DNA of 64,000 nt from Chloroflexota bacterium (GCA_003158295.1 PMIP01000093.1:7630-71629); one strand, 5' to 3'. Counted from the stretch's first letter, positions 12,269 through 42,296 are shown. Program-made: numbers and translations. Notes: generated by a model from the sequence alone, not told the origin.

Positions 12269-12271
12269 CGC

Positions 12272-13404: not shown

Positions 13405-13407
13405 GAT

Positions 13408-13746: not shown

Positions 13747-13786
13747 CTGCTCTAGCTCCGTACGGGGTTTACGTGCTTCCTTCTTC

Positions 13787-14071
13787 TCAGTTGGCGAGCA
13801 GGCCGAGCGCGCTGTCGATCCGAGCCTGGTCGAAACCCACGATCGGGCTACCGTCGACCTCGATGACCGGCACGCCCATCTGCCCGGTCCGGCGCACCAG
13901 ATTTCGCGCGGCCGCCGGGTCGCGGCTGACATCCACGTCGCGGAACGGAACCCCACGGGTGCGGAGATACGTCTTGGCGCGCATGCACCAGACGCACGTG
14001 GGCGACGAGTAGACGATGACGCGATGCGTCCCGCCCGTGGAAGTGGCCTTATGCGAGAGGTAGCTACCCAT
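13787..14071 (-). CDS. Glutaredoxin-like (NrdH/YruB-type) protein
   Basis: Internal ATG of track ORF 13787..14230. VIVYSSPTCVWCMRAKTYL (CxxC) ...GVPVIEVDG. Confidence 0.8.
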   Translation of the reverse strand: MGSYLSHKATSTGGTHRVIVYSSPTCVWCMRAKTYLRTRGVPFRDVDVSRDPAAARNLVRRTGQMGVPVIEVDGSPIVGFDQARIDSALGLLAN

Positions 14072-20091: not shown

Positions 20092-20420
20092 GCGGCCCCC
20101 GAACCGACGCCCGGAGGCGCGCCCGAGCCGCCCACCGCCGCCACGCCCGACGCCGTCTCACCGGGGCCCATGGCGCCGAGCTCCTGCGCCATCCCTTCGG
20201 CATCGATCGCCCGAATCATCTCCAGCGTTCGCAGCGCCTCTTCCTCGTCCACGTGGCTGATTGCGAAGCCGACGTGCACGATGACGTAGTCGCCCAGGGA
20301 GACCTCAGGCTCGTAGGCGAGGCAGGCTTCCTTCCGCACGCCCCCAAAGTCGACGATGGCCATCCGCAACGGACCATCGTCGCGGATCTCGACCACCTTG
20401 CCGGGGATGCCTAGGCACAT
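20088..20420 (-). CDS. hypC: [NiFe]-hydrogenase maturation chaperone HypC (with a Gly/Ala-rich C-terminal extension)
   Basis: Begins with the [12 protein letters not shown] signature. 110 aa, versus the usual 75-90. Confidence 0.9.
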
Positions 20421-20477
20421 TAGAAGCTCTCCTTGCCGGTTCCGCGGCCGCCGGGCCGCATCCCGAGATTGCGCACG

Positions 20478-22886: not shown

Positions 22887-23221
22887 GGGACCGCCTCCAG
22901 CAGCTCGACGTCGATCTGCTCGTTGGCGAAGTCCGGGAGGGTCTCGGCGCCACAGCTTGGGCAGGGCGGCGCGAATTCCAAGGATCCGAACTCGGCGTCG
23001 CAGGTCGGGCAGTAGTGACCGAAGGGAACGCGGCGGATCTCGAGGCTCGCGACCGAGGCGGCCTCCTCCGGCATCTCGGCGACCAGATGGACTCGCATCC
23101 CGGCCTCGAATTCGGCCGGGTCGTGGTGACCGCCGCGCACGATCAGACGAACTTGCCCCACGCGCAGGCCGCTTCCGCGCAGCAGCTTCGCCACGCCTCG
23201 CGCCAGACCTGCTTCGTGCAT
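22883..23221 (-). CDS. hypA: Hydrogenase nickel-insertion protein HypA
   Basis: 112 aa. MHE start and two CxxC pairs (CPTC...CPSC). GGAGG RBS. ATGA overlap with the hypF start. Confidence 0.85.
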   Translation of the reverse strand: MHEAGLARGVAKLLRGSGLRVGQVRLIVRGGHHDPAEFEAGMRVHLVAEMPEEAASVASLEIRRVPFGHYCPTCDAEFGSLEFAPPCPSCGAETLPDFANEQIDVELLEAVP

Positions 23222-23453
23222 TCGATCGAACCTCCGCTGGGGGACGTCCCGAAGCCGGGCTCGACCTCCCGCCGAGCGTGCGGACCTGCCGTTCGCCCGG
23301 CTCTATCTCACATCATCTCGCTGCAGTATCCGCCTGCCGAGCGGCCCGCACCTCGTGCCGAAGGTCCCGACTAGGTCCTGAGTGCGGGTAGGCGGTGCCA
23401 CCTTCCCTGGGTGCTCGACATGAAGTCGTCAGCTCGATCCTACAATCGCGGCT

Positions 23454-24422
23454 ATGACCTCGACGGAAGGCCCCGGATCGTCTCGGGAAAGCCGTCCTCG
23501 CCTCGCGCGGGCGACCGTGGGCGCTGGGATTCGGGCCTTTCGCCTGGACGACGAGCCCGCCCTTCGGCGCGTCATGACCGCCGCCCTCGAGGTCGACGCC
23601 TATCCCGGCTTCAGCTCCTGGGACCTGGACGGCGAGGCGGTCTCGATCGTCGGCGCACCCGACGATGTGGTGGTCGCGGTCGAGGATGACGCCGTGTGCG
23701 GCTACGTCAGCCCGGGCCACGATGATCTCACCGTCCATCCCGAATACCGGCGACGCGGCCACGGACGGCGGCTCTTCGCCGCCGGCCTGGAGCTGGCGGC
23801 GCGGGAGGGCTTGAGCGAAATCCGCCTCTACGTGCCATTGAGTGGCGCCGGCCAGGCGTTTGCTAGGGCGATGGGAATGTCGTATCGCTCCAGCATGTGG
23901 CGCCTGGACCTTGCGCCGGAAGCAGCCGTCCCCGAGCCGGTATTCCCCGTCGAGGTGGCCAGCCGCGCTTTCGGTGACTGGCTGTCGCTGCCACGATTCC
24001 TCGATCTGCTCAACGCCACCTTCGCCAGCCATCCCAGTCCCGTGTCTTGGACCCTTGGCGAAATCCAGCATGCGCACGACCAGCCCGATTTCGACCCGAC
24101 AACGATCTTGCTTGTCTCACCTGTCGGCCGACCTGATGATCCGATCGCCTTCGTTCGGACCGCGCTTGCGCCGCCCGGGAACGGTGAGGCGGCGCCGGTC
24201 GGCGACGTCCGGCTGATCGGAGTGGCGCCGCAATGGCGAGGCCGCGGGTTGGGCCGCGAACTCCTGCGTTGGGGCGTGGCGCAGCTGCGGGCCCGCGGCG
24301 CCAGCAGAATCCAGCTGAGCGTCGAGGCGGAGAACGACCTGGCGCTGGGGCTCTACCGCCGGGCCGGATTCGAACCGCTCGTTGAGTGGCCTCACTGGAG
24401 TAGGCCCGTCCGGATCCCGTAG
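23454..24422 (+). CDS. Tandem-GNAT acetyltransferase, mycothiol synthase (MshD)-like
   Basis: 322 aa with two GNAT cores (HPEYRRRGHGRRLFAAGLE and APQWRGRGLGRELLRWGV). This is the MshD architecture, but orthology is not verified. Confidence 0.6.
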   Translation: MTSTEGPGSSRESRPRLARATVGAGIRAFRLDDEPALRRVMTAALEVDAYPGFSSWDLDGEAVSIVGAPDDVVVAVEDDAVCGYVSPGHDDLTVHPEYRRRGHGRRLFAAGLELAAREGLSEIRLYVPLSGAGQAFARAMGMSYRSSMWRLDLAPEAAVPEPVFPVEVASRAFGDWLSLPRFLDLLNATFASHPSPVSWTLGEIQHAHDQPDFDPTTILLVSPVGRPDDPIAFVRTALAPPGNGEAAPVGDVRLIGVAPQWRGRGLGRELLRWGVAQLRARGASRIQLSVEAENDLALGLYRRAGFEPLVEWPHWSRPVRIP

Positions 24423-24426
24423 CTCC

Positions 24427-25653
24427 TCAGCAGACGAGCGGCGAATCCTCCAGGCCCACGCCCGTCAGAGCGTGCTTGCAGCGAGGGCACCGGCCCGCCA
24501 CCAGCCGCCACTCGGTGACCGCGTAGTCCGCGCGGGCTATCAGCCTCTCGCCGCAACGGGCGCAGGACGTGGTGGCCGCCTCGACCTCGGGCGCATTGCC
24601 GACGTAGACGTGCCGCAGCCCAACCTCACGCCCGATCGCCGCGGCCTTGACCAGCGTCGCCGCCGGCGTCTCCCGGAGCTCGCTGAGCCGATACGCCGGT
24701 TGGAAGCGGGTCAGGTGCCAGGGAGTCTCGGGGCCGACCGCCGTGGCGATCCACTCGGCCATGGCTCGCAGCTCCCGCGCGTTGTCGTTCAGGCCCGGGA
24801 TCAACAGTGTCGTCAGCTCCAGCCAGATGCCGCGCCGCCGCATCTCGAGCACTGCCTCGCGAACGGGCTCCCAGCGGGCGCCGCAGACCCGTCGGTAGAA
24901 GTGGTCGTTGGCGGCCTTGAGGTCCACATTCGCGGCGTCCAGGTAGGGCGCCACCAGTTCGATCGCCTCGGGAGTCTCGTAGCCGTTCGTGACGAACACG
25001 TTTCGGAGGCCGGCGGCCTGAGCCCGGACCATCGAGTCGAACGCAAACTCGATGAAGACCGTAGGCTCGACATACGTGTAGGCGACGCTTCGAGCGCCCG
25101 CCGCAACAGCCTCCTCGACCACCTGCTCCGGGGCGACCTGCCGACTCTCCGGGACCACGCCCTCCCGGTGGGCCTGGGATATGGCCCAGTTCTGGCAGAA
25201 CGCGCAGTGGAAGTTGCATCCCGCGGTGGCGACGGAGAACGCGGTGCTGCCCGGCAGGAAATGGTAGAAAGGCTTCTTCTCGATCGGCTCCACCTTCGAC
25301 GCCACGACCTGGCCGTACACGAGCGTATACAGCCAGCCGCCGCGGTTCTGGCGGACGCCGCAGATCCCGATTCGACCGGGCCTGAGCACGCATCGGTGGG
25401 CGCATGCCACGCAGCGAACGCTGCTCGGAGCGAGCGGGTCATCGTAGGGCTCGTCCAGGAGCGCCCGGCGGATGTTGGGCTCCGACTCGCCGGCAGGCCC
25501 CAGATCACCGGCACGCAGTCCCTCCGGCGGCTCCTCGCCGGGGAAGTGGGCACGGATCGGATCGGGCCGGGCCGCGTCGGGGTCGAAGGTAACGGCCGGA
25601 GCCTTGGTGAAGGTTTCGCGACTGCCCGGCCGGTCCGATTCGTCTCCCATCAA
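24427..25653 (-). CDS. AmmeMemoRadiSam-system-type radical SAM enzyme (PFL-activase-like)
   Basis: 408 aa. CNFHCAFCQNW (CxxxCxxC), an upstream CVACAHRC...GICGVR cluster and C-terminal CARCG...CPRC. Confidence 0.8.
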   Translation of the reverse strand: MMGDESDRPGSRETFTKAPAVTFDPDAARPDPIRAHFPGEEPPEGLRAGDLGPAGESEPNIRRALLDEPYDDPLAPSSVRCVACAHRCVLRPGRIGICGVRQNRGGWLYTLVYGQVVASKVEPIEKKPFYHFLPGSTAFSVATAGCNFHCAFCQNWAISQAHREGVVPESRQVAPEQVVEEAVAAGARSVAYTYVEPTVFIEFAFDSMVRAQAAGLRNVFVTNGYETPEAIELVAPYLDAANVDLKAANDHFYRRVCGARWEPVREAVLEMRRRGIWLELTTLLIPGLNDNARELRAMAEWIATAVGPETPWHLTRFQPAYRLSELRETPAATLVKAAAIGREVGLRHVYVGNAPEVEAATTSCARCGERLIARADYAVTEWRLVAGRCPRCKHALTGVGLEDSPLVC

Positions 25654-26229: not shown

Positions 26230-27405
26230 ATGGAAACGGGCCGTCGAGCTCGTGTGCTCATGAAGGGCAACGAGGCTATCGCCGAGGCGGCGATACAGGC
26301 GGGCTGCGACGCCTACTTCGGTTACCCGATCACGCCTCAAGCCGAGCTGCTGGAGTGGATGGCTCGACGGATGCCCGAGCTGGGGCGTGTCTTCGTACAG
26401 GCCGAGAGCGAGCTGGGCGCCATCAACATGGCCCTGGGCGCGGCGGCCACCGGCGCCCGGGTGATGGTTTCGTCGTCGAGCCCGGGCATCAGCTTGATGG
26501 CCGAGGCGATGAGCTACATGGCCGGCTCCGGCACGCCGGTGGTGCTCGTCAACGTCATGCGCGCCGGCCCCGGCCTGGGCGGCATCGGCCCGTCACAGAG
26601 CGATTACTTCCAGGCTACGAAGGGTCACGGCCACGGCGACTACCGCGTGCCGGTCCTGGCTCCGGACTCGATCGGCGAGGCGATGGATCTGATGGCAACC
26701 GCCTTCGAGCTGGCGGAGCGCTATCGGACGCCGGTCATGCTCGTCGCCGACGGGATCCTCGGCCAGGCGATGGAACCCGTCGAGCTTCGGTTCCGAACGC
26801 CCGAGCGTCAGGCGTTCGACTGGGCGCTGACCGGCGCGGCCGGCCGCCCGGCTAGGATCATCAAGTCGATCGATCTGGACCCGGAGGTCCTGGAGCGTCG
26901 CAATCTCGCCCTCCAGCACAAGTACCGCGAGATTGCCCGCCACGAGACCCGCTGGGAGGGCTGGCGACTCGGGGACGCCGAATTCGCGATCGTCGCCTAT
27001 GGCACGGCCGCCCGAGTCGCTCGCAGCGCGATAGCCAGAGCTCGTGACAATGGCATGAAGGTTGGGCTCTTCCGCCCGATCACGCTGTGGCCCTTCCCAG
27101 AGCGCGAGCTGGCCCGCATGAGCCGGCAGCTGCACGGGATCCTGACGGTGGAACTCTCGTCAGGACAGATGATCGAGGACGTCCGACTGGCGGTCGAAGG
27201 CCGCTGTCCGGTGGCTTTCCACGGGCGGATGGGCGGCCTGGTGCCAACGCCGGACGAAGTGCTCGGCGCCCTGAAGGCCCTGCGCGGCAGGGTGGAACGA
27301 ACTCGAGCCGCAAGCGGACACTCCCCGGCGGCACACGACCGTGGAACCCCATCGACGAACGGGGCCGGCCTCGACGCCGGCGCGCGACCAGGCGGCCGAG
27401 GATGA
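26230..27405 (+). CDS. 2-oxoacid:ferredoxin oxidoreductase alpha subunit
   Basis: Tail of shadow ORF 24382..27405. ATG 26230 has GGAGG 8 nt upstream. [30 protein letters not shown]...[19 protein letters not shown] at 26179 is an alternative start. Confidence 0.85.
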
Positions 27406-28238
27406 CGCTGGACGCCCGCTCCTCCGGCGCGCTTCGGGGCGCGGCTGCGGCCCGGCTCGTCTACCGCAAGCCTGACGTGCTCGTCGACCGCGCCACTCAC
27501 TACTGCCCCGGCTGCGGCCACGGCGTGATCCACCGCCTCCTGGCCGAGGTCCTGACCGACCTGGACCTGCCGGCCCACACCATCGCCGTCGCCCCGGTCG
27601 GTTGCGCGGTGTTCATCTACGACTACCTCGACGTTGATTTCGTCGAGGCACCGCACGGCCGCGCCCCGGCCGTGGCCACGGGTATCCGGCGTCTCAGACC
27701 GGAGGCCTTTGTCCTCACCTACCAGGGCGACGGGGACCTTGCCGCCATCGGCACGGCGGAGATCGTCCACGCCGCGGCCCGTGGCGAGCGCATCACGGCG
27801 ATCTTCGTCAACAACGGCATCTACGGCATGACCGGCGGTCAGATGGCCCCGACGACGCTCCTCGGACAGCGGACCACCTCTTCGCCGAGCGGCCGTGACG
27901 CGGGGCTCATGGGGTACCCGATCCGGATAACCGAGATGCTGGCCCAGCTGCCGGGCGTCACCTACGCGGCCCGCGGCAGCGTTGCCGATGCGGGGTCTAT
28001 CGGAAGGCTCAAGGCGATGATCGCGCGAGCCTGCCGGGTCCAGATCGAGGGCGGCGGATTCGCCATCGTCGAGGTCCTCTCCAATTGCCCGGTCGGCTGG
28101 GGCATGACGCCGCAGGAATCGCTCGAGCACCTCAAGGGCCCCGTGGTGGAGGCCTATCCGCTGGGCGTCATCGTGGATCGCTCGGCCCCATCGACGGCCC
28201 GTCCGGCAGCGGCCGCCCCCACCAAGCCGGAGGCCTGA
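27402..28238 (+). CDS. 2-oxoacid:ferredoxin oxidoreductase beta subunit (TPP-binding)
   Basis: ATGA overlap with the alpha stop. [18 protein letters not shown] and [11 protein letters not shown]. Confidence 0.9.
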
Positions 28239-28239
28239 G

Positions 28240-28794
28240 ATGGAGCGCTCTGTCGTGTTCGCCGGTTTCGGCGGCCAGGGCCTTCTCTTCACCGGCCAGG
28301 TTCTCGCCCGGGCCGCAATCAGGGACGGCCTGGAGGTCTTCTGGATTCCCTCGTACGGCCCCGAGATGCGCGGCGGCACGGCCTCATGCACGGTGATCGT
28401 CGGCGATGAGCCGATCGGCTCGCCGGTTGTGGACGAGTTCGACGCCGCGGTGGTCATGAACCTGCCGTCGCTTCGCAAGTTCGCTCCGCTGGTCGCCCCC
28501 GGTGGGCTGGTGATCGTCAACAGTTCGCTTCTGGGCGATCTCGGATGCGGCCGGAGCGATGTCGATGAGATGCGGCTGCCGTGCACCGAGCTGGCGGCTC
28601 AAGGCGGCGACGACAAGCTCGTCAGCGTCGTCGCGCTGGGTGCCCTGGTCGCCCATCTCGGCTGGGTCACACGCGAATCGATCGACTCCGCCCTGCGCGA
28701 GATGGCGGGCCGCAAGCGGCCGGAGGTGGTCGACGCGGACCTCGGCGCCTTCGCGGCCGGTCTCCAGGCCGGAGCTGTAGGGCAGGCCGCATAG
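28240..28794 (+). CDS. 2-oxoacid:ferredoxin oxidoreductase gamma subunit
   Basis: 184 aa. [22 protein letters not shown]...[13 protein letters not shown]. Confidence 0.9.
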
Positions 28795-29937: not shown

Positions 29938-31641
29938 CTAGGAATGCGGTCCGGCGCGGAGAACGCCGGCCATCTCCTGCAGGGTTTGCCAGTTGAGGAG
30001 GCGGTCATCCTGGGAGGTCAGCAGCTCGGCGGAGGGATTGCCCTCCTTGTCGAAGTGCTGGGCGAAACGCCCTTCGGTCCGGGCGAAGGAAACGAAGTCG
30101 AACGTGGAGCCGTCCGGGCTCTTGGTCCAGTCTTCCTTCACGGCCGGGTTGCCCTGCAGAGAGAGACGCTCGGCGGTCGAGCGCCCGCGCCGCGGGTCGT
30201 AGGTGAAGAGAGGGAATGCCCGCGACTCGACGGCCAGCTTGGCCTGCCTGGTGCCCATGTCGTCGGCAATGCCGTGCTCGGGCATGCAGGGTGCGTAGGC
30301 GATTACAACTGCCGGACCCGGGTACTCGTTGGCCTCCATGACCGCCTTGTAGAGGTGGTTTATGGTGCAGGCCGCGACCTGGGCGATATACGCGTCGCCG
30401 TGGGCTACCAGTATCCGACCGAGTTCCTTGCGCTTCTCGGACTTGCCATGCTGGGCCTTGCCGTAGGCGGCGAGCTTGGAGACTTGCGCCGTGAACGAAG
30501 CCGTCGATGCCTGGCCGCCGGTGTTCGAATATACGCCCGTGTCCAGGACGAGGACCTTGACGTCCATCCCCGAGGCGACCAGTCGCGACAGCGACTGGAA
30601 GCCGATGTCGTACATGGCGCCGTCGCCGCCGAAGACCCACAGCCGCCGCTCGGGGTGGCCGTCCTGGTCCCAGCGGAGCCGGATGCCCATGGCGTCGGCC
30701 GGGCCGTTCTCGAAGAGCGAATTGGTCCACGGAACCGTGAACGGGTTGTACGGGTAGGTGCTGCCGAGAACGCTGTTGCAGCCGGTCTCGGCGACGATGC
30801 CCATGCCCTGGGGTCCGTAGGTCTGGAGCGTGGCGGCGACGACCATCCGGATCAGCGTGCCTTCGCCGCAGCCCGAGCAGGAGCCGGCGCCACCGACGTA
30901 GCCGAAGGCGTGTTCGCCGAGCATCAGGTCGGCCAGGACCTTCTCGTTGCGGTATTCGACCGGCGTTGGGGGCAGGGACTTGTAGAAGGCTATGTCGCGG
31001 CGGAAGCGGTCGAGCGTGGACTCGCCGCTCGCTTCGGCGTCGACCTTCTCTACCATCGTCAGGGCGTTGTGGTCGAGCGCTGCGCAGACTTCCACGCACT
31101 CGGCGCAGCCCTTGCAGTGATACGGGTCGATGAAGAGACCGAAGTCGGCGCCTTCGAGACCCTTCTTGGCGGGCACCTCGGCGTACTTGGTGGTGTGGAC
31201 GAAGTGGGACCTGGCCGTCTCAGTGGCGAGACCCGCGTTCGGACTGCTCGCGGCGAAGCCGTCGATGGCCTTGGCCAGCGATCCCTTGGGCTGGGCAGTC
31301 GCCATGATGGCGGTGTCCGGGCAGGCGCTCACGCAGGCCATGCAGCCGACGCATTTCTCGGCGTCGAACTGCGGGATGAGCGGCGACAGGGCGCTGAAGT
31401 CGCGTACTCCCGCGGTGGCCGGAGCGATGAGGCTCCGTCCCACGCCCATGTCGGCCGGCAGATCGACATCCGCGATGCCCCGACGATAGGCATCGATGAC
31501 GTTCGTGTTGAAGTCGTCGATGTACGCCTTGACGTTGAGGGTCTGGGGCGCGATCAGTCCCGGTCCGGCCCCGAGCTTGGAGATGTCGACCATGGGTGCC
31601 GGGCTGTGGCCGTTGTTCTTTGTGGCAATCGTCTCGGTCAT
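29938..31641 (-). CDS. Pyruvate/2-oxoacid:ferredoxin oxidoreductase, C-terminal half (ferredoxin domain V + TPP-binding domain VI)
   Basis: 567 aa. CVGCMACVSACP, CKGCAECVEVC, GGAGSCSGCGEG, GGDGAMYDIGFQSL and TGVYSNTGGQ. Confidence 0.9.
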   Translation of the reverse strand: MTETIATKNNGHSPAPMVDISKLGAGPGLIAPQTLNVKAYIDDFNTNVIDAYRRGIADVDLPADMGVGRSLIAPATAGVRDFSALSPLIPQFDAEKCVGCMACVSACPDTAIMATAQPKGSLAKAIDGFAASSPNAGLATETARSHFVHTTKYAEVPAKKGLEGADFGLFIDPYHCKGCAECVEVCAALDHNALTMVEKVDAEASGESTLDRFRRDIAFYKSLPPTPVEYRNEKVLADLMLGEHAFGYVGGAGSCSGCGEGTLIRMVVAATLQTYGPQGMGIVAETGCNSVLGSTYPYNPFTVPWTNSLFENGPADAMGIRLRWDQDGHPERRLWVFGGDGAMYDIGFQSLSRLVASGMDVKVLVLDTGVYSNTGGQASTASFTAQVSKLAAYGKAQHGKSEKRKELGRILVAHGDAYIAQVAACTINHLYKAVMEANEYPGPAVVIAYAPCMPEHGIADDMGTRQAKLAVESRAFPLFTYDPRRGRSTAERLSLQGNPAVKEDWTKSPDGSTFDFVSFARTEGRFAQHFDKEGNPSAELLTSQDDRLLNWQTLQEMAGVLRAGPHS

Positions 31642-31660
31642 CGCTCGCTCAGTCTTCGGG

Positions 31661-32056
31661 TTACTTCAGCCACGACCGCACGAGGTCGCTGGCGGAAATG
31701 ATTCCGATCGGGGTGGACGCTCCGTCTGTTACGACGAGGCGGTGGACACGGCGCCCGTCCATGACCTTCGCGGCCTCTTCGAGAGTGGCCGTCATGGAGA
31801 TGGTGAGGGCCGGCGTGGTCATGATCTGCCCGACGGGCAGGCCGGGCCAGTTCTGGACGAACTCTTGGTTGGCTCGGGCTCGAACCAGGTCGGTCTGGCT
31901 CAGGACGCCCACCAGAGCTCCGCCCGCATCCAGGACCGGAAGACCGGTGATCTTCTGGGTGTCGAGGATCTTGGCGGCCTCCGCGAGGGAGGCCGTCTCG
32001 GCGATGGAGATCGGGTTGGCAGTCATGACCTCGCCAACGGTTCGAGCATGATTCAT
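31661..32056 (-). CDS. CBS-pair domain protein
   Basis: 131 aa with two CBS motifs (VMTANPISIAETASLAEAAKIL...GLPVLD and IMTTPALTISMTATLEEAAKVM...RLVVTD). ATGA overlap with the upstream PFOR gene stop. Confidence 0.9.
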   Translation of the reverse strand: MNHARTVGEVMTANPISIAETASLAEAAKILDTQKITGLPVLDAGGALVGVLSQTDLVRARANQEFVQNWPGLPVGQIMTTPALTISMTATLEEAAKVMDGRRVHRLVVTDGASTPIGIISASDLVRSWLK

Positions 32057-34404
32057 CGAGCAGCCTCGACCGCGGGCGTTGCGGCGAGTGCCGCGGTGAC
32101 GTCGATCACGCCGTCATACGCACCCTGGATGACAGCCAGGTTGGCATCGACGACGGCGGTGCCGCGCTTGCCGAAGAAACGGGTCAGGTTGCCCCGGACC
32201 GCCTCCATCAGAGCCGGCCGGTCGAGACCGGCGCGTTCGGCGAAAGGCGAGACCCGCAGGAAGACACCGACGAGCGCCACGCCCTGCATCCGGATCTCGA
32301 GATCCGGGCGAGGTGCGTGCTTCATGGCGAGCGACGCGGTGTCCAGGGCCAGAAGCCGGATCTTGCGAGCCAGCATCTCCGCTCGCGTTGCAGGCGGGAG
32401 TGCGGCCCAGATTTCTTTCGGATCCGTCAGCGGAGTCGGCACGAAGACCGTGCCCCCGTCAACGAGACCCGCCAGAGGGTTGCCGTGCTTGAACGAGTTG
32501 GTGTCGAAGAGCGGCACGAAGTCCACTTCCGTCAGCTCGTTGTGGAGCCGGATCGGTTCCTCCGCGATCGTCAGGAAATAGGTCGTCGGGAGACCCTTCT
32601 TCTCCGAGCCGTAGCGCGGATAGGCCTGGACGTAGAGGTTGAACAGCTCGCCCACGGTCGTCGCCACAAGCTTGTTTGTGGTGACGCTGCCGAAGCCGCC
32701 GACCGAATGGCCTCGCAGGCTGTAGGCGCCCTTGGGACGGACGTTGATGCCGCTCATCGTCAGAGCCTGAGGGTGTTTGATGCCGAGCACAGCGTGGCGG
32801 TGCTCCTTCATGGCCTTCTCGTCCGTCATCATGTCGAAGACGGCGCCGAGGTCGCCCGGCTGGATGTCGCGGGAGCCGAGGCCACCCGCAACTGACACGA
32901 CACGGGGCAGGTGGGCGCCGTCCATCGCCGCGTCGGCTAGGGCGGACTTGAGCTCACGAGTCAGCGGATTGTCGGCGGCCGCGGGATCGTCCGTGCGCTC
33001 CACCACAGCCACTACCTTGGCGTGGGCGAGCGCCCTGGCGAGCTGGGTGGCCGGGAACGGCCGGAAACAGGTGACGGTGATGCAGCCGACCTTGCGACCC
33101 TCGGCGCGGAGCGAATCCACGACCGCGAGGGCCGTATCGGCCATCGTCCCCATCGATACGAGGATGTAGTCGGCATCTTCGGTTCGGTAGGGAGCGATCA
33201 TGCCGTATGGGCGGCCGGTGAGCGCCGTCCACTCGGCCATGGCGCGTTCGACGATCTCGGGCAGGCGGTCGTACCAGGCCCGCATGCCGATGCGGCCCTT
33301 CATGTACGAGTCCTGGTTCTGGACCGGACCCGAGAGCAGGGCATCGTTGGGGTCGAACAGGTTGCGGACCGTCTTGCGGGGATCGCCCACGAAACGGCGG
33401 AGCAGGTCGTCTTCGGGGAGAAGGACGTTCTCGATCGTGTGCGTGGTCAGGAAGCCATCCTGGGCCACGAACCACGGCGTCTCGCCGTCTTCGGCGACGC
33501 GCCGAGCGATAGCGGTGAGGTCCGCCGCCTCCTGGCAGTTGCGGGCGAAGAACTGGCCCCAGCCCGTGTCGGCGACACCCATCATGTCGTCGTGGCCGGC
33601 ATGGATGTTGAGGGCCTGCCAGGTGAGGGCGCGAGCCCCGACATGGAAGACCGCCGGCAGACGCTTGCCGGCGATGGTGTACAGAACCTCCTTCATGAGG
33701 ATGAGGCCCTGGGCGGATGTGAAGTTCGTGACCCGGCCGCCGGCAAGGGCAAAGCCCTCGGCGGCAGATGCGGAGGAGTGCTCCGACTCCGGCTCGATGA
33801 ACTTCAGGTGCGTTCCCCACAGGTTGGGTGTGCCGTTGGCAACGGCAACCTGGTAGACCGCCGCCATGGTCGTCGAGGGCGTGATCGGGTAGGCGCAAGC
33901 GCCGTCGCTGATCCTCGTCTCGACGTAGGCGATGGCCTCCGAGCCGTCGATGATGGCTGGGATGCCTGGGAATTCTGGAGTCGGCTTGTTCGTCACGATG
34001 GTCGGTTCACTCAATGCGCGCAACTGGCGGGCCAGTGCGCTTCCATCCAGATGCTTAAGCAAGGTGCCGCCAATCCCGCTGGCGACCGCCTCGCGCTGCT
34101 CGTCCGCATGCCAGTAGGAGGCGAGCACGGCGATCCGCTCCGCGGGAACCAGATCGCGCAGTGCCGCCGCCATCGGCCGCCAGCCTCCCGCGACGTCGGC
34201 ATCGAGCAACACCACATCCGGCCGGGCAGACGCGGCCTCGCGCGCCGCGGATTCACACGACGCCTGAGCGACGATGAAGCCATGGCGCGAGAGGTGATCG
34301 CACAGTGCCTCGGTGGCAGCGCGGTGCTGACTGACGATGAGCAGTCGGCGCGGAGGTATCTGGGAGTCGGCGAGCATGCGGTAAGGGTGCGCCGAGGTCT
34401 CCAC
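32053..34404 (-). CDS. Receiver-like (CheY-fold) domain fused to the pyruvate:ferredoxin oxidoreductase N-terminal half (domains I-II-III)
   Basis: 783 aa with a GTG start.
- Residues ~17-135: RRLLIVSQHRAATEAL...DVVLLDADVAGG...RIAVLASY...GTLLKHL.
- Then the PFOR part: IDGSEAIAYVE...CAYPITPSTTMA, the domain III GHSVGGFGSVTTNK, and YGSEKKGLPTTY. Confidence 0.85.
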   Translation of the reverse strand: METSAHPYRMLADSQIPPRRLLIVSQHRAATEALCDHLSRHGFIVAQASCESAAREAASARPDVVLLDADVAGGWRPMAAALRDLVPAERIAVLASYWHADEQREAVASGIGGTLLKHLDGSALARQLRALSEPTIVTNKPTPEFPGIPAIIDGSEAIAYVETRISDGACAYPITPSTTMAAVYQVAVANGTPNLWGTHLKFIEPESEHSSASAAEGFALAGGRVTNFTSAQGLILMKEVLYTIAGKRLPAVFHVGARALTWQALNIHAGHDDMMGVADTGWGQFFARNCQEAADLTAIARRVAEDGETPWFVAQDGFLTTHTIENVLLPEDDLLRRFVGDPRKTVRNLFDPNDALLSGPVQNQDSYMKGRIGMRAWYDRLPEIVERAMAEWTALTGRPYGMIAPYRTEDADYILVSMGTMADTALAVVDSLRAEGRKVGCITVTCFRPFPATQLARALAHAKVVAVVERTDDPAAADNPLTRELKSALADAAMDGAHLPRVVSVAGGLGSRDIQPGDLGAVFDMMTDEKAMKEHRHAVLGIKHPQALTMSGINVRPKGAYSLRGHSVGGFGSVTTNKLVATTVGELFNLYVQAYPRYGSEKKGLPTTYFLTIAEEPIRLHNELTEVDFVPLFDTNSFKHGNPLAGLVDGGTVFVPTPLTDPKEIWAALPPATRAEMLARKIRLLALDTASLAMKHAPRPDLEIRMQGVALVGVFLRVSPFAERAGLDRPALMEAVRGNLTRFFGKRGTAVVDANLAVIQGAYDGVIDVTAALAATPAVEAAR

Positions 34405-34435: not shown

Positions 34436-34449
34436 GGGCCATATGGCCC
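34436..34449. promoter_or_regulatory. 14-bp perfect palindrome GGGCCATATGGCCC upstream of the REC-PFOR gene
   Basis: Read directly. It lies 32-45 nt upstream of the GTG at 34404. Confidence 0.35.
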
Positions 34450-34657
34450 GCACGAGCACAATCGAGGATGGGGCGCACCTGCCCGAATTGGCAGGTCATC
34501 TTCCCCCGCCAGGGTAGTCTCGGCGGGCCGGAGTGGCGGCCTCCGGCGGACCCCTCCGGCCGCCCCGGGACGCACTACGGACGGGGACTACATGCCCTCG
34601 GCGGAGGGCCATTCGGCACTGCGCAGAGCCCTCGTGCGCCCCCAGACTCTGCCTCGT

Positions 34658-34699
34658 GACGAACGCCGGAGGGGACGCCCGGCGTTCGTCCTTTTTTTG
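34658..34699 (+). terminator. Canonical intrinsic terminator oriented on the + strand (12-bp stem, 9-nt loop, T7 tract)
   Basis: GACGAACGCCGG-aggggacgc-CCGGCGTTCGTC followed by CTTTTTTTG, read directly. Both flanking genes are on the minus strand. Confidence 0.6.
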
Positions 34700-34806
34700 T
34701 GCCGGGAACTGCGGTCGCCGTTAGCCGGCCGGCTGAGGTTCCGTGGTGATCTACGGGCGGCGGATTGCGCGGGCCAGCGCGGGCCAGCGCGTACCCTCCC
34801 GCGACC

Positions 34807-36078
34807 TTACAGCTCGTGGTACTTGCGGGCGTAGGAAGTCAGCTCCTCGCGGAAGTCCGGGTGGGCAATGGCGATGAGCCGTTTCGCGCGCTCGCGGAAC
34901 CCCTGGCCGAACAGCTCGGCCACGCCGTACTCGGTCACAACCGTGCGGACACTCGAACGGGTCACGGTAACGCCGGCTCCGTCATACATCTCCCAGGTGA
35001 TGCGCGAGACCTTCCCGTCGGCCGTGGTGGACGGCAGGGCGATGATCGCCTTCCCCTCCGGCGCAAGTGACGCCCCTCGCACGAAGTCCATCTGCCCGCC
35101 GACGCCGCTGTACATCTTGTGGCCCAGGGAATCGGCGCAGACCTGGCCTGTGAGGTCCACCTCGATCGCGGAGTTGACCGCGATCATGCGCCGCTGTTTT
35201 CGGATCGTGGCTGTGTCGTTCGTGTAGTCAACGCCGCGCAGTTCGAGCATGGGGTTGCCGTCGACCCACTTGTACAGACGCGGCGTCCCCATCATGAACG
35301 CGGCCACCACCTTGTGCGGGTCGAGGGTCTTGGCGCTGCAGTCCACAACCCCCTTCTCCACCAGCTCAACCAGTGGATCGGTGAACATCTCGGTGTGAAC
35401 GCCGAGGTGCTTCTTGCCTTCGAGGCACAGGCCGACAGCCGTCGGGATCGCGCCGATCCCCATCTGGAGCGTAGCCTCATCTGGAATCAGGTCTGCGACG
35501 TACTCGCCGATCCGGCGCTCCACGTCGCTGATCTCCCCCGGGTTGTACTCGTAGGGCGCCTGATCGACCTCGACTGCCAGGTCGATATCGTTGATGTGGA
35601 CGTGGCTGTCGCCGCAGGTGCGCGGCATCGACGGGTTGAGCTGAGCGATGACGGTCTTTGCGCAGCGGATCGCGGTCTGCATCGCTTCCACGGACGTTCC
35701 GAGCGAGCAGAAGCCATGTTCGTCGGGAGGCGTCATGTTGGCGAAGACGGCGTCGAGCGGCAGGAGGCCGCTCTCCATCAACAGCGGGACGTCCGACAGC
35801 TGGACCGGGATAAACTCCGCGCGTCCGTCGTTGATGGCCGCCCGGGCATTCGGTCCGATGAAGAGCGCCCTGTGAAAGAGGTGGCCCTCCATTTCGGGGG
35901 CAAGGTGAGGGTGCGGCCCCTCGCAGTGCAGATGGGCGACCTTGACGTCTTCCAGCTTCGGAGCCCTGCGGCACAGGGCGTCCAGGAGTGCGGACGGCGT
36001 GGCGGCCGCGCAGTGGACGTAGATCTGCTGGCCCGACTCGATGCCCGAGACTGCCTCATCGGCGCTGACGATACGCAT
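34807..36078 (-). CDS. Acetyl-CoA hydrolase/transferase family protein (4-hydroxybutyrate/succinyl-CoA:acetate CoA-transferase-like)
   Basis: 423 aa. The family pattern runs throughout: GIGAIP, EMFTD, VNSAIEVDLTGQVCADS...YSGVGGQMDF and VVTEYG. Confidence 0.85.
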   Translation of the reverse strand: MRIVSADEAVSGIESGQQIYVHCAAATPSALLDALCRRAPKLEDVKVAHLHCEGPHPHLAPEMEGHLFHRALFIGPNARAAINDGRAEFIPVQLSDVPLLMESGLLPLDAVFANMTPPDEHGFCSLGTSVEAMQTAIRCAKTVIAQLNPSMPRTCGDSHVHINDIDLAVEVDQAPYEYNPGEISDVERRIGEYVADLIPDEATLQMGIGAIPTAVGLCLEGKKHLGVHTEMFTDPLVELVEKGVVDCSAKTLDPHKVVAAFMMGTPRLYKWVDGNPMLELRGVDYTNDTATIRKQRRMIAVNSAIEVDLTGQVCADSLGHKMYSGVGGQMDFVRGASLAPEGKAIIALPSTTADGKVSRITWEMYDGAGVTVTRSSVRTVVTEYGVAELFGQGFRERAKRLIAIAHPDFREELTSYARKYHEL

Positions 36079-36166: not shown

Positions 36167-37438
36167 CTAGAGCCCGTAGTTCTTGCGGGCGTAGGAGGTC
36201 AGCTCGTCGCGAAAGTCGGGATGAGCGATCGCAATCAGGCGCTTGGCGCGCTCGCGGAAGCCCTGTCCGAACAGCTCGGCGACGCCGTACTCGGTGACGA
36301 CCGTTCGGACGTGGGCGCGAGTCGTGGTCACCCCGGCCCCCTCCTTGAGGGCGGCGGTGATCCGCGAGAACTTGCCGCCAGCGGCAGTCGAAGGCAGAGC
36401 GATGATCGATCGCCCCTCCTCCGCGAGGGCCGCCCCCCGGATGAAGTCCACCTGCCCACCGACACCGCTGTACATCCGGCTCCCGATCGAGTCCGCGCTG
36501 ACCTGGCCGGTGAGGTCGATCTCGATGGCCGAATTGATGGCGGTCATGCGGCGCTGCCGACGGATCACCGAGGTGTCGTTCGTGTAGTCCACCTGGCGCA
36601 TCTCGACCATCGGGTTGTTGTCCACGAACTTGTAGAGGCGCTTCGTGCCCATCATGAAGGTCACGACGATCTTGCCGCAGTCGACCGTCTTGCGCTCGCA
36701 GGTCACGATCCCGCGCTCGACGAGATCGACGAGGACGTCGGTGAACATCTCGGTGTGGATACCGAGATTCTTCTTGTCGTTGAGATAGAGGCATACCGCG
36801 CTCGGGATGGCGCCAATGCCCATCTGCAGGGTGGCTTCGTCCTGGACCAGGCCGGCGACGTACTCGCCGATGCGCCGCTCTACTTCGCCGATCACAGGGT
36901 TCGCATGCTCGTAGGGCGGCATATCCACTTCGACGCCGAGATCGATCTTGTCCACGTGCACGAAGGAGTCGCCCAGAGTGCGGGGCATCGACTTGTTGAT
37001 CTGGGCAATGAGCGTCCTGGCGTTCCGGATGGCGGCGATCACCGTATCGACGGATGTGCCCAGTGAACAGAAGCCGTGCTCGTCCGGCGGGCTGACATTG
37101 AGGAAGGCAGCATCCACGGGTTGAATCTGCTGGTCGAAGAGCAAAGGAATCTCGGACAGGAAGACGGGAATGTACTCGGCGCGGCCGTCGTTGATGGCCC
37201 GGCGGGCGTTCGGACCGATGAACAGGGCCTTGTGGCAGAAGTGGCCCTCCATCTCCGGGGCGAGATGCGGATGCGGCCCCTCGCAGTGCATGTGAATCAG
37301 GTTCACGTCCTGGAGTTCCGGCGCTCGCCTCACCAGCGCCTCGAGGAGTATCTCCGGGACCGCCGCCGCTCCCTGCATGAAGACCTGCTGACCTGACTTG
37401 ATCCCTGAGACCGCCTCTTCGGCGCTGGCGATACGCAT
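36167..37438 (-). CDS. Acetyl-CoA hydrolase/transferase family protein, tandem paralog
   Basis: Internal ATG of track ORF 36167..37504. 423 aa, colinear with the 34807..36078 product. The last ~45 residues are nearly identical. Confidence 0.85.
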   Translation of the reverse strand: MRIASAEEAVSGIKSGQQVFMQGAAAVPEILLEALVRRAPELQDVNLIHMHCEGPHPHLAPEMEGHFCHKALFIGPNARRAINDGRAEYIPVFLSEIPLLFDQQIQPVDAAFLNVSPPDEHGFCSLGTSVDTVIAAIRNARTLIAQINKSMPRTLGDSFVHVDKIDLGVEVDMPPYEHANPVIGEVERRIGEYVAGLVQDEATLQMGIGAIPSAVCLYLNDKKNLGIHTEMFTDVLVDLVERGIVTCERKTVDCGKIVVTFMMGTKRLYKFVDNNPMVEMRQVDYTNDTSVIRRQRRMTAINSAIEIDLTGQVSADSIGSRMYSGVGGQVDFIRGAALAEEGRSIIALPSTAAGGKFSRITAALKEGAGVTTTRAHVRTVVTEYGVAELFGQGFRERAKRLIAIAHPDFRDELTSYARKNYGL

Positions 37439-37830
37439 GACGGGCAGTGTACGGGGCGCGCGACCTTGCGGGAGGGCCGAACGCAACGGTCGAGGATGCC
37501 GCACGGCCCGGATCGCGGCGCCGTTGCTACTGCATGGCTGCTCTCGCCCCTCAGATAGTCACCCGGGGACTAGTATCCAGGTCGCCGTGTCTCAGAAGGA
37601 CGCCAGTGACGAGGAAGGGAAGACCGCTGAGCCTTGCTCGCGCTCGAACGATCGCCGTCGGCTGTCTGCGAGGCGCACCTCCTCTTCGGTCGCTTCTTTC
37701 GGCGTCGGACAGTAGTCGTCGCAGACTATGTGAACGAGGGCGCAGCGACCGCGGCCATGACTCACCGACCGTCCGATCAGCGCCGAAGGCGCGCAAACCG
37801 CCAGATCGTGGAGAGAGCCGCTCCGGCCGG

Positions 37831-38502
37831 TTACGCGCCGCCCTTCATGCGATGGCGGGCTACGAAGGCGGCGGCCTGGGCGCGCCGCTCGAGGTTCAGC
37901 TTGGACAGGATTGAGCTGACGTAGTTCTTGACCGTCTTGTCCGACAGGAAGACGTCGGAGGCGATCTCCTTGTTCGTCTTGCCCTCGGCGACCAGCAGCA
38001 GGATCTTCTGCTCCTGCTGGGTCAGCTGCGCCATCTCGTCGGTGTAGGTGCCCGTGGCGATGCGGCGAACCCGATCCAGCACCTTCTCGGTCACCGCCGG
38101 GTCCAGCAGCGACTCGCCACGGCCGACCGATTCGAGGGCGCTGACGAGATCGCGGCCGCGGATCTGCTTGAGCAGGTAACCAGAGGCTCCGGCGATGATC
38201 GCGGAGAGAACGGCTTCCTCGTCCGGGTAGCTGGTGAGAATGACGACCCGAGTCCGGGGGAACTCGGCGCGGATCTCGCGACAGGCCTCTATGCCGGACC
38301 CGTCGGGCAGACGCACGTCCATGACGATGATGTCCGGCTCGAACTTGCGAGCCATCTCCACGGCTTCGGCGGCCGTACCGGCCTCGGCCACGACCTGGAA
38401 GTGCTCGCGTCGCTCGAGGAGTGAAACCAGGCCCTGGCGAACGACCTCGTGATCGTCCACCACGAGCAACCGCAGCGGGCGTGCTTCGGTCTGGTCGGTC
38501 AT
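37831..38502 (-). CDS. NarL/LuxR-family response regulator, DevR/DosR-like
   Basis: 223 aa. LLVVDDHEVVRQGL, MDVRLPDGSGIEACREI, LTSYPDEEAVLSAIIAGASGYLLK and the C-terminal TNKEIASDVFLSDKTVKNYVSSILSKL. Close in pattern to my memory of M. tuberculosis DevR. Confidence 0.85.
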   Translation of the reverse strand: MTDQTEARPLRLLVVDDHEVVRQGLVSLLERREHFQVVAEAGTAAEAVEMARKFEPDIIVMDVRLPDGSGIEACREIRAEFPRTRVVILTSYPDEEAVLSAIIAGASGYLLKQIRGRDLVSALESVGRGESLLDPAVTEKVLDRVRRIATGTYTDEMAQLTQQEQKILLLVAEGKTNKEIASDVFLSDKTVKNYVSSILSKLNLERRAQAAAFVARHRMKGGA

Positions 38503-40070
38503 TCTTCGCCTCGATCCGTGGCTTCCCCGCCCGGCAGGTCGCGACGGGTCACCTCCACGATGATACGCGTACCGCGGCCGGGGTGGCTGTCCACCTCCAG
38601 GCTGCCACCGATGGACGCGACTCGGGCCCGCATGTTCACGAGGCCCTGGTGGCCGGCGCTGCGGGGCACTTCCGCGTCGAAGCCGACGCCGTTGTCGCTC
38701 ACGACCATCTTGACGTGGCCACGACGCGACTCGACCTCGACGGTTCCGCGCGTCCCCTTGGAGTGGCGGGCGATGTTGCTGAGAGCTTCTCTGGCGATCG
38801 AGAGCAGCTGGCCCGTCACGTCTGGCGGCAGGTCCAGGTCTTCGACCGCGGAGGTATCCAGGTCGATGTCGACCATGCTGTTGACGCGGAACTCGTCGGC
38901 GAGAGCCGCCAGTCCACCCACGAGCCCCGCTTGCTCTAGCAGCTCGGGCCGCAGGCCGAAGATGAAGTTGCGGATGTCTCGAATCGACTGGTCAAGCGAG
39001 TCGATGGCCCGTTCGACCCGAGCCTTGGCCACCTCGGGCTCGTCCTCCATCAGGTCCGGGACGTCTTCGAGCGAGAGCCCGACGGCGTAGATGCTCTGGA
39101 TGATGCCGTCGTGCAGGTCGCGGCCGATGCGCTCACGCTCGTCGACGATCGCCAGACGCTGAACCTGCTCGTGAAGCCGGGCGTTCTCGATGGCGATGCC
39201 GGCATGCAGGGCGAACATCTCGACGAGCCGCTCATCGTCCGCGGTGAAGTCGCCGGACGGCTGCTTGTTGGTGAGGTAGAGGCGGCCGATCGAGCGTCCC
39301 TTGACCCCGATCGGGACCCCGAGCAGGGTATGCATCGGCGGGTGGTTGGACGGCGTGCCGTTGCGACGGGGGTCGGTGGCGATGTCGTGGATGCGGACCG
39401 GATGGCTCTGTCGGGCAATCACACCCAGGAGCCCGAGCCCGCGCGGCGGGGCGCCGATCCGCTCCCGTTCGGCTCGGGTGATGCCGCTGGTGATGAAGCG
39501 CTCTATTCCGCCCTCCTGGTCCACGATCCCCAAGGCCGCGTACTGGGCGTGGGCCAGCTCGCGCACCCGGTCCGTGATCAGCTGGAGTACACGGTCCAGG
39601 TCGAGGACGCCGGCGATGCCGCGGGTGGCGCTGTCGAGCGCGGCGAGCTCCCTGGAAGCCTGGCCTGCTCGAGCACGGGACCATGCCGACCCAATGACGA
39701 TCTCCAAACCACGAGCGCACTCGTCGACGGAGACGACCGCGTTCGATGCGGCGTCCAGCTGCAGCGTCCCCAGGACACGGTCGCCGAACCGGAGCTCGTA
39801 CGTTCGGAGACCGGCCGTCTCGGCGCCCTGGTCGACCAGGCTGCCGGCCCGCAGCTCGACCTCCGCGACGGGCGCGGCGTTGAGGTGGAGGTGGCCGCCG
39901 CGAAGCCCGGAGCTTGCGATCACGCTCCCGAAAGCGCTCTCGAGGCGCCCGTAGGAGTCGGGGCTCGCCTCGGCGTGCCAGCTCTCCAACGCCTCGGCCA
40001 CATCCCTCAGGCCGAGCAGGCCGGTCGCACCCGGGGTCGCGTTCGGGGTCGAATTGGCGGCGGTCATCAT
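38499..40070 (-). CDS. GAF-domain sensor histidine kinase (HisKA_3/HATPase), DevS/DosT-like
   Basis: Internal ATG (40070 or 40067) of track ORF 38499..40175. GAF motif LLGVIARQSHPVRIHDIATDPRR...HPPMHTLLGVPI...GRLYLTNK, H-box ERERIGRDLHDGIIQ, and N/G boxes. ATGA overlap with the regulator. Confidence 0.85.
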   Translation of the reverse strand: MMTAANSTPNATPGATGLLGLRDVAEALESWHAEASPDSYGRLESAFGSVIASSGLRGGHLHLNAAPVAEVELRAGSLVDQGAETAGLRTYELRFGDRVLGTLQLDAASNAVVSVDECARGLEIVIGSAWSRARAGQASRELAALDSATRGIAGVLDLDRVLQLITDRVRELAHAQYAALGIVDQEGGIERFITSGITRAERERIGAPPRGLGLLGVIARQSHPVRIHDIATDPRRNGTPSNHPPMHTLLGVPIGVKGRSIGRLYLTNKQPSGDFTADDERLVEMFALHAGIAIENARLHEQVQRLAIVDERERIGRDLHDGIIQSIYAVGLSLEDVPDLMEDEPEVAKARVERAIDSLDQSIRDIRNFIFGLRPELLEQAGLVGGLAALADEFRVNSMVDIDLDTSAVEDLDLPPDVTGQLLSIAREALSNIARHSKGTRGTVEVESRRGHVKMVVSDNGVGFDAEVPRSAGHQGLVNMRARVASIGGSLEVDSHPGRGTRIIVEVTRRDLPGGEATDRGEE

Positions 40071-40231
40071 CGGCAGCCTAGCAGGAGGCCCGATTGGGCG
40101 TCGCGCACAGCGGGGACCTTTGTGCCCGCGGGAACGGGCCGGAGGTCCCTTGGCCCTCCCCAGGGGCGCGCCCACGATCGCCCAACACGGAGAACGGCAG
40201 CCAGTCGGCTCCCAGCGCGGCGCGAGAACGT

Positions 40232-41456: not shown

Positions 41457-42296
41457 CTACTTCGTGTACGCCCCGTCGGGATCCAGCTCTTCGCGGATCA
41501 GGCGCAGCTCTTCGGCAGAGGGCTCAGGCGTCGTGGGCAGCGGGTCGGCCACTTTCGGCTGCCAGCCCATCGTGTCGCGGATCTGTTCGAGCGTGGCGCC
41601 GGGGTGGATCGAGTCCAGTCGCATCTCGCCGGCCTCGTCGAAGTGGTAGATGCCCAGGTCCGTCACGACCACCGAGGGCCCGGACCCGAGCCAGCCTTCC
41701 TCGCGCCGCGTTCGGGCCGCCGACTCCGCCCCGCCGAGGTTGCCCGGCGAGGTCCGGAAGTCGATCCGGTCCACGAAAGAGCGCTTCGACTGGCGCATGA
41801 TCACGAATACCTGGCGGGCGTTTATGGCGATCTCGCATGCCCCGCCCGAGCCCGGGAGTCGCGTCTTGGGGTGCTCGTAGTCGCCGATGACCGTGCTGTT
41901 GATGTTGCCGAAGCGGTCGATCTGGGCCGCGCCGAGGAAGCCGACGTCCACCAGCCCGCCCTGCAAGTAGAAGCTGAACAGCTCGAACATCGAGACGGCA
42001 GCCGTCGCGCCGGTGACGATGGTCGGGTCGCCGATCGATAGCGGCAAGCGGGCCGGCTTCGCGCCGAAGGCGCCCGACTCGTAGACGAGCTCGAGCTCAG
42101 GGGCGACGGTGAGCCGGGCCAGGTTGACGGCGATGTTCGGCAGGCCGACCCCAACGAAGCAGACTCGCTGGCCGGCCAGCTCGCGAGCCGCGGCCACGAT
42201 CATCATCTCGGACCTGGTGAAGCCGGAGGGAGCGGCGCCGGTGGCGGCCGGGGTCGATCCGCCGGCGGCCGGTACATCGCGGCGGGGCTCGCTCAT
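41457..42296 (-). CDS. CoA-transferase subunit B (glutaconate/3-oxoacid CoA-transferase family)
   Basis: Internal ATG of track ORF 41457..42683, with ATGA overlap on the subunit A stop. VCFVGVGLPN...ESG and GGACEIA. Confidence 0.8.
   Translation of the reverse strand: MSEPRRDVPAAGGSTPAATGAAPSGFTRSEMMIVAAARELAGQRVCFVGVGLPNIAVNLARLTVAPELELVYESGAFGAKPARLPLSIGDPTIVTGATAAVSMFELFSFYLQGGLVDVGFLGAAQIDRFGNINSTVIGDYEHPKTRLPGSGGACEIAINARQVFVIMRQSKRSFVDRIDFRTSPGNLGGAESAARTRREEGWLGSGPSVVVTDLGIYHFDEAGEMRLDSIHPGATLEQIRDTMGWQPKVADPLPTTPEPSAEELRLIREELDPDGAYTK

Follow-up and report, generated by a model that had tools for sequence, protein, structure and literature searches.

Pyruvate:ferredoxin oxidoreductase (PFOR) sets the low-potential reducing power made from pyruvate, and to our knowledge almost nothing has been learned about its post-translational control. 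Its closest solved forms are the single-chain enzymes of Moorella thermoacetica (6CIN) and Desulfovibrio africanus (1B0P), in which domains I, II and III precede domains V and VI on one polypeptide. Multi-subunit 2-oxoacid:ferredoxin oxidoreductases (OFORs), such as the PorABCD-type PFOR of Methanosarcina acetivorans (9BT4) and oxalate oxidoreductase (5C4I), are built from separate alpha, beta, gamma and delta subunits. Here we describe a locus in a 64,000-nt stretch of DNA from a Chloroflexota bacterium (GCA_003158295.1, PMIP01000093.1:7630-71629; the whole stretch is hereafter the window), in which a PFOR of the single-chain type is divided over two genes, a CBS-pair gene lies in the cut, and the first PFOR gene begins with a degenerate receiver (REC) domain. 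The literature searched describes no REC-PFOR fusion, in keeping with the initial annotation of this DNA, which knew of none. The features of the split PFOR are as follows.

34003..34350, minus strand: degenerate receiver of the NarL/DevR family, residues 10-125 (S16, Q17, D59, A86, T105, K108)
33966..34002, minus strand: low-confidence linker, EPTIVTNKPTPEF, the site of the stop and restart that split the fusion in relatives
32053..34377, minus strand: REC-PFOR alpha-gamma gene, 774 residues, comprising the receiver-like domain, the linker and PFOR domains I, II and III
31661..32056, minus strand: CBS-pair (Bateman module) protein, 131 residues, two CBS domains, its start overlapping the stop of the preceding gene
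29938..31641, minus strand: PFOR delta-beta gene, 567 residues, a 2x[4Fe-4S] ferredoxin domain V and a thiamine pyrophosphate (TPP) domain VI with proximal-cluster cysteines

The open reading frame (ORF) listing of the window gives three co-directional ORFs on the minus strand (32053-34404, 31661-32056 and 29938-31641, here ORF1, the CBS gene and ORF3), and their coordinates place an ATGA overlap between ORF1 and the CBS gene at 32053-32056 and a 19-nt gap between the CBS gene and ORF3 at 31642-31660. The ORF coordinates, overlap, gap and 131-residue CBS-pair product of the initial annotation are all in agreement with this listing and with Pfam, but its start for ORF1 is replaced. The mechanical ORF1 runs to GTG 34404 and encodes 783 residues, and from ATG 34377 it encodes 774 (MLADSQ...). 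Because the homologues all begin MLAD..., matching ATG 34377, and conservation ends upstream of this ATG, with the 27 nt between the two codons unconserved among loci, translation almost certainly starts at this ATG; residue numbers below refer to the 774-residue protein unless the 783-residue listing is named. A frameshift or stop that would make the N-terminal part a separate gene, for which the initial annotation had advised a check, does not occur between the receiver and the PFOR core of the window, and the same continuous ORF is present in 11 species-level metagenome-assembled genomes (MAGs).

Several lines of sequence and model evidence indicate that the first ~125 residues of ORF1 form a CheY-like receiver of the NarL/DevR family. 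Pfam Response_reg (PF00072) matches residues 22-126 of the 783-residue listing (13-117 of the 774-residue protein) over profile positions 2-108 of 111, with a score of 19.4 bits that lies under the gathering cut-off of 30.2; several homologues already carry a precomputed PF00072 match, and the top NCBIfam receiver matches are NarL-family models. The sole sequence match of ORF1 in the PDB outside the OFORs is Mycobacterium tuberculosis DevR (3C3W). In a BLASTP comparison, the receiver aligns with the DevR-like regulator encoded 3.4 kb away at 29% identity over residues 1-126 (E 8e-12), such that LLVVDDH of the regulator pairs with LLIVSQH and LTSY pairs with LASY. The AlphaFold2 (AF2) model of residues 1-135 has a predicted local distance difference test score (pLDDT) of 83 and a clean (beta-alpha)5 topology running from E10-15 through H112-123, and a Foldseek search of the PDB with this model placed receivers in all of the top 50 positions (TM-scores 0.70-0.86, root-mean-square deviation ~1.7-2.6 Å for nearly all). 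The linker falls below a pLDDT of 50 in the full-length AF2 model. Together, the sub-cut-off Pfam match, the DevR 3C3W and BLASTP alignments, the AF2 fold and the Foldseek matches bear out the receiver-like N-terminal domain that had been proposed from the sequence, with a Response_reg or CheY-fold match as its check. A flavodoxin or B12-domain reading of the N-terminus was also considered and rejected, as neither fold is among the top 50 structural matches and inspection by eye found no flavodoxin FMN phosphate-loop motif.

Two of the five canonical receiver residues survive in this domain. The phospho-acceptor Asp59 at the end of beta3 and the conserved Lys108 at the end of beta5 are present and invariant. 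The acidic-pair positions are occupied by Ser16-Gln17 (Ser-Thr in some relatives), opposite the D-D of both the neighbouring regulator and M. tuberculosis DevR, and the aromatic switch position in beta5 is Thr105, opposite a Tyr in DevR. In every alignment the Thr/Ser position at the end of beta4 is Ala86, and it is followed by Ser87, a site at which either Ser or Ala occurs. Over the 52 distinct N-terminal sequences that carry the receiver joined to PFOR, these states vary little or not at all. The initial annotation had recognised the Ser-Gln replacement, the acceptor Asp and the Lys, and its suggestion of an atypical or pseudo-receiver is upheld by the substitutions at S16, Q17, A86 and T105; its Ser at the Thr/Ser position was one residue off. 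The acidic pair after beta1 (D12/D13 in CheY) binds Mg2+, and by established biochemistry a receiver that loses the acidic pocket is normally no longer capable of Mg2+-dependent phosphotransfer. Canonical phosphotransfer is therefore unlikely here, and since both Mg2+ ligands, the Thr/Ser and the aromatic switch residue have all been lost, the receiver probably works without phosphorylation.

To place the fusion among its relatives we used a genome scan that gave at least 600 matched stretches, at least 596 of which encode a relative, so that the two-gene PFOR type is common; the locus counts given here and below refer to 80 species-representative loci, 76 of them scorable, among the matches listed. 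The receiver is present in 11 of the 80 species loci, all of which are Chloroflexota/Limnocylindrales MAGs and several of which are named for fen or peatland (SPRUCE) sites, and its pairwise ratio of non-synonymous to synonymous substitution (dN/dS, a simple Nei-Gojobori count) is 0.06-0.30. The closest receiver-less PFORs are 71-76% identical in the protein search and 66-72% identical in the tblastn genome scan, again among the matches listed. A neighbour-joining tree built on the catalytic core unites the receiver-associated PFORs in a single clade with a fused basal member.

Receiver and PFOR have come apart within this clade, and a search with the receiver alone recovered complete receiver-only ORFs of 127-142 residues at 77-90% identity. 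At one unfused locus (L087) the receiver ORF ends 5 nt ahead of a 647-residue PFOR gene, and at two others (L088/L089) it overlaps a 651-residue PFOR gene by 4 nt, the change lying in the linker in both cases; because these loci are nested within the fused clade, at least two fissions have occurred. At further loci PFOR has been deleted, either with the receiver and the CBS gene kept (L081-83, L093) or together with the CBS gene, leaving the receiver (L084-86, L090-92). The PFOR-less genes fall into two different subclades of the receiver tree, and the PFOR genes were lost on at least two occasions with retention of the receiver gene. L090 and L092 have a deletion junction in common and differ in their receivers by 37 synonymous and 6 non-synonymous changes (dN/dS 0.044), and the receiver is therefore under strong purifying selection without PFOR, from which it follows that its job is not confined to PFOR. 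Within the lineages L084-86 and L081-83 there are 0-2 differences, too few to judge selection. Two unusual sequences were also seen among these relatives. Locus L008 has a second, inverted and partly rearranged REC-PFOR copy ~6 kb downstream (12112-14248), with a receiver 88% and a core 70-83% identical. The 135-residue protein P0141 looks chimeric: residues 1 to ~45 are similar to a canonical receiver that keeps its D-D pair (MSIKILVCDDHQG...), and from there on the sequence is the same as that of the degenerate L081-type receiver. Recombination or a chimeric assembly could account for it.

An exhaustive HMMER search of 1.84 billion representatives extended the receiver family beyond this clade, returning 18 proteins at E <= 1e-10, most of which are single-domain receivers of 127-254 residues at 42-56% identity. 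An acetyl-CoA hydrolase/transferase gene lies directly upstream of the distant receiver in four of five loci, and in one a DevR-like regulator precedes it. The first acidic residue is absent throughout the wider family, the Thr/Ser position is usually Ala, and most members keep the second acidic residue, so the Ser-Gln of the window clade represents a further, derived loss. With 13 distant family members as queries, the receiver-less Limnocylindrales loci yielded no stand-alone receiver gene, the matches being to the DevR receiver only. On these comparisons the receiver belongs to a single-domain family that is normally encoded by a separate gene following a CoA-transferase and that in the window clade has become fused to the PFOR alpha-gamma gene.

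The enzyme to which the receiver is attached is a PFOR of the single-chain type that is divided after domain III and before domain V, with the CBS-pair gene in the cut. Pfam identifies POR_N (residues 167-389 of the 783-residue listing), PFOR_II and POR (gamma) in ORF1, and two Fer4 (4Fe-4S) motifs and TPP_enzyme_C in ORF3. The closest solved structures for both large ORFs are 6CIN and 1B0P; in the PDB sequence matches ORF1 aligns over residues 142-769 to residues 5-621 of single-chain PFOR, and ORF3 aligns to residues 674-876 and 954-1109, a match with which the full-length AF2 model agrees at the level of the fold. Domains I, II, III, V and VI thus stand in single-chain order, spread over two ORFs. 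The single-chain PFOR model TIGR02176 scores 362 bits against ORF1 and 221 bits against ORF3, compared with a cut-off of 911, and describes one polypeptide where the window has two. A motif search found CVGCMACVSACP, CKGCAECVEVCA, GSCSGCGE, TGCNS, YAPC and GGDG...NTGGQ in ORF3, and showed the catalytic hallmarks to be intact (YPITPS, HVGARA, two CxxCxxCxxxC[PA] motifs, the proximal-cluster cysteines and GGDG...NTGGQ), including the TPP-binding GDG...N motif and the cysteines for three [4Fe-4S] clusters; from the D. africanus enzyme we take YPITPS and HVxARA to be motifs of the pyruvate or substrate site. Pyruvate is the likely substrate, judging from the closest relatives. Pfam, the 6CIN and 1B0P matches and the motifs all support the division of a monomeric-type PFOR into a I-II-III and a V-VI ORF that had been noticed initially. 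Compared with 6CIN and 1B0P, the window enzyme retains the domain order, the TPP motif and the cysteines of all three clusters, and differs in its two polypeptides, the CBS-pair gene in the cut and the added N-terminal receiver. The multi-subunit enzymes 9BT4 and 5C4I are weaker matches, in which subunits are separate that the window enzyme has fused as alpha with gamma and delta with beta.

The CBS-pair protein contains PF00571 twice (Pfam, E 3.4e-30), and CBSX2 and CBSX1 are near the top of its PDB sequence matches. In the genome scan, the alpha-gamma gene is directly adjacent to the delta-beta gene in 76 of 76 scorable loci, with a CBS-pair gene between the PFOR genes in 50 of them, and two-gene loci span Chloroflexota (Caldilineae, Anaerolineales), Acidobacteria, Deltaproteobacteria, Methylomirabilota, Binatia, Rokubacteria and others. 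One receiver-bearing locus (L006) is without the CBS gene. The CBS genes left behind at PFOR-less loci have a dN/dS of 0.19 and look selected. In five loci from distant phyla (L041, L050, L063, L065, L075) a CBS-pair gene stands upstream of the PFOR alpha-gamma gene, replacing or adding to the intergenic one. The distribution indicates that the split and the CBS partner are old and widespread, and that only the receiver fusion is specific to the window clade. Both elements, which the initial annotation had noticed, are present, and the CBS gene, whose absence from orthologous loci it had named as a point to check, is found in most of them, but neither is special to the window genome. The age and wide distribution of this layout make it most likely that the CBS protein serves PFOR as an accessory or regulatory subunit. 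The literature searched describes no CBS partner for PFOR, and the conservation of such a partner with the two-gene PFOR in many phyla from soil and groundwater suggests that a regulatory or protective subunit has been overlooked.

The genes around the split PFOR, and a palindrome ahead of it, are the following.

34436..34449, no strand assigned: perfect 14-bp palindrome, GGGCCATATGGCCC, lying 59-72 nt ahead of the start codon, a candidate operator
34807-36078 and 36167-37504, minus strand: two acetyl-CoA hydrolase/transferase genes in tandem, immediately upstream of the receiver
37831-38502, minus strand: NarL-type response regulator, REC and GerE by Pfam (DevR-like)
38499-40175, minus strand: GAF-HisKA_3-HATPase_c histidine kinase by Pfam (DevS-like)
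26242-28794, plus strand: second OFOR, of the four-subunit type, with separate alpha, beta and gamma subunits; it is convergent with the split PFOR, and most related loci share its synteny
17858-25653, minus strand: hypE-like (AIRS), hypD, hypF and hypA genes and a radical SAM gene, adjoining the OFOR/PFOR cluster

A DevS/DevR-like pair had been noted nearby at the outset, and both the GAF-HisKA_3 kinase and the NarL-type regulator are indeed present. The adjacency of acetyl-CoA hydrolase/transferase and receiver is conserved in close and distant relatives, and receiver loci with enough flanking sequence always show the same order: a GAF-HisKA_3 kinase, a NarL-type regulator (93-100% identical), one or two CoA-transferases and the receiver. 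Because some receiver-less Limnocylindrales share the order kinase, regulator, CoA-transferase and PFOR, the receiver joined a cluster that already existed. The window, L002 and L006 have two acetyl-CoA hydrolase/transferase paralogues in tandem, most related loci having one, and a further gene of the CoA_trans family lies at 41457-42683. Relatives of the second OFOR also have a delta gene upstream, and L084-86 retain only its gamma gene. The hydrogenase-maturation neighbours recur in L081 and L084, and their position next to the cluster fits a hypoxia-induced fermentative metabolism yielding acetate and H2 in carbon-rich wetlands.

Nearly all of the 17 loci aligned carry the palindrome GGGCCATATGGCCC, PFOR-less ones among them, and distant receiver-only genes have GGGCC(G/A)TTCGGCCC at the equivalent upstream place. 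No other exact GGGCCN4GGCCC occurs in the 64-kb window, where a looser relative, GGGTCCTTCGGCCC, occurs at 25772 upstream of the neighbouring OFOR, so that a regulon sought within the window amounts to one exact site and this one loose relative; its likeness to the DosR box is a loose one of form. Farther upstream lies a ~95-nt element (34603-34700, plus strand), antisense or divergent to the REC-PFOR gene, which starts with GGGCCATTCGGCACTGCGC, contains GGGCCATTCGGCAC at 34606-34619 and ends in a 13-bp GC-rich hairpin and T-run (GTGACGAACGCCGG...CCGGCGTTCGTCC TTTTTTT). The element is almost invariant in 21 loci, and in L084-86 its orientation to the receiver gene is inverted. An Rfam scan of the upstream intergenic region gave only a sub-threshold match to sRNA P37, and consensus folding produced a near-invariant hairpin with a single compensatory pair, too little to identify a structured RNA; the element could encode a small RNA, act as a terminator on the plus strand or bind a protein.

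We consider it somewhat more probable than an even chance that the locus, in a Limnocylindrales genome from peat, is a fermentative acetate module under a DevS/DevR-type system, supplied by a two-gene PFOR, in which the receiver serves as a phosphorylation-independent interaction module and not as a phospho-switch dedicated to PFOR. Pyruvate would be converted to acetyl-CoA and reduced ferredoxin, and acetyl-CoA to acetate, under DevS/DevR control and with hydrogenase genes nearby; the receiver would dock to the DevS-like kinase, to the receiver of the DevR-like regulator or to the CoA-transferase, and the fusion would tether this docking module to PFOR. Several points weigh against this proposal. 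The interaction partners are conjecture, and the invariance of Asp59 and Lys108 could mean residual phospho-chemistry. Most lineages retain the fusion, and after fission the genes are still translationally coupled, which argues for a functional tie to PFOR. Pairwise dN/dS mixes the time before and after PFOR loss, save in L090/L092, for which the shared deletion is a parsimony argument; the trees are neighbour-joining trees without support values, and the relatives are all MAGs or metagenome contigs. The fission in L087 is a 1-nt deletion and a possible assembly error, and a second assembly gives an identical 647-residue product (P0086, P0087).

The alternatives differ in what they make of the same observations. 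Invariant Asp59 and Lys108 would be expected if the receiver were a working phospho-acceptor, with the DevS-like or another kinase phosphorylating Asp59 and so switching PFOR activity, and the constant presence of a DevS/DevR-type pair in the cluster, the paralogy of the receiver to the DevR-like regulator family and the second acidic residue retained by more distant family members fit the same idea. Direct two-component phospho-control of PFOR was what the initial annotation had envisaged, but we now regard it as distinctly doubtful: the Mg2+ ligands, the Thr/Ser and the aromatic switch are replaced, with the replacements fixed across the clade, the general effect of acidic-pocket loss on Mg2+-dependent phosphotransfer tells against it, and selection still maintains the receiver at loci that have lost PFOR. 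The separate-gene and PFOR-less forms, the stand-alone habit of the wider family and the short, variable linker of low model confidence would also be accounted for by a neutral fusion, in which an independent single-domain signalling protein was joined to PFOR by stop-codon loss with no functional coupling. We hold this possible though unlikely, given that the fused form is basal in the clade and kept in most lineages, that the genes stay 5 nt apart or overlap by 4 nt after fission, and that two deletion lineages keep the receiver together with the PFOR-associated CBS gene.

A purely structural role, with the receiver as an oligomerisation or stability domain of PFOR that has no part in signalling, would draw on the general tendency of receiver domains to dimerise and on the dimers of catalytic units formed by PFORs (6CIN, 1B0P); sister PFORs at 66-72% identity (tblastn) do without a receiver, however, and the receiver survives PFOR deletion, which makes this very improbable. 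As for an artefact, whether a mis-assembled or mis-called ORF or an N-terminus that is flavodoxin-like or B12-binding and not a receiver, the sub-cut-off Pfam score and the restriction of the window's matches to metagenome and MAG proteins could be cited in its favour, but the recurrence of the ORF in 11 independent MAGs at species level and in 52 distinct sequences, the dN/dS of 0.06-0.30 and the top 50 structural matches, all receivers and no flavodoxin, leave it scarcely credible. A bolder and rather speculative version, to which we give little weight, would make both the pseudo-receiver and the CBS protein subunits of the PFOR holoenzyme, such that the receiver, itself unphosphorylated, docks the DevS-like kinase or phospho-DevR onto the enzyme and the hypoxia or redox state of the two-component system directly gates low-potential electron output, with the CBS protein setting activity by adenylate or another nucleotide. 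If true, a central ferredoxin-reducing enzyme would for the first time be linked post-translationally to a two-component system, and the PFOR type found in many phyla would have a previously unrecognised regulatory subunit. The natural series of fusion, fission and loss in abundant peatland Chloroflexota shows which proteins to test for interaction.

Set beside known systems, each module of the locus has counterparts from which it departs. The CBS-pair protein has two CBS domains in common with the regulatory modules of AMPK gamma, IMPDH, plant CBSX1/2 and AcuB, known modules of this kind being among its PDB matches; unlike them, it is a stand-alone protein of 131 residues encoded between the halves of PFOR. 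The receiver is collinear from beta1 to alpha5 with that of M. tuberculosis DevR/DosR (3C3W), its top PDB sequence match, and lacks the DNA-binding domain, with D-D replaced by S-Q, T82 by Ala86 and Tyr by Thr105. Pseudo-receivers and atypical receivers such as KaiA, CikA, FrzS and HP1043 serve protein-protein contacts, and share with it a CheY fold and incomplete phospho-chemistry (FrzS is a weak sequence match); the window receiver differs from these in keeping the acceptor Asp and the Lys, in being attached to a ferredoxin-reducing enzyme and in lying in a DevS/DevR cluster. In the receiver-enzyme fusions CheB, PleD/WspR and RpfG the receiver is likewise N-terminal to the enzyme, but there the receivers are canonical and phosphorylated, and the outputs are signalling enzymes and not a central metabolic oxidoreductase.

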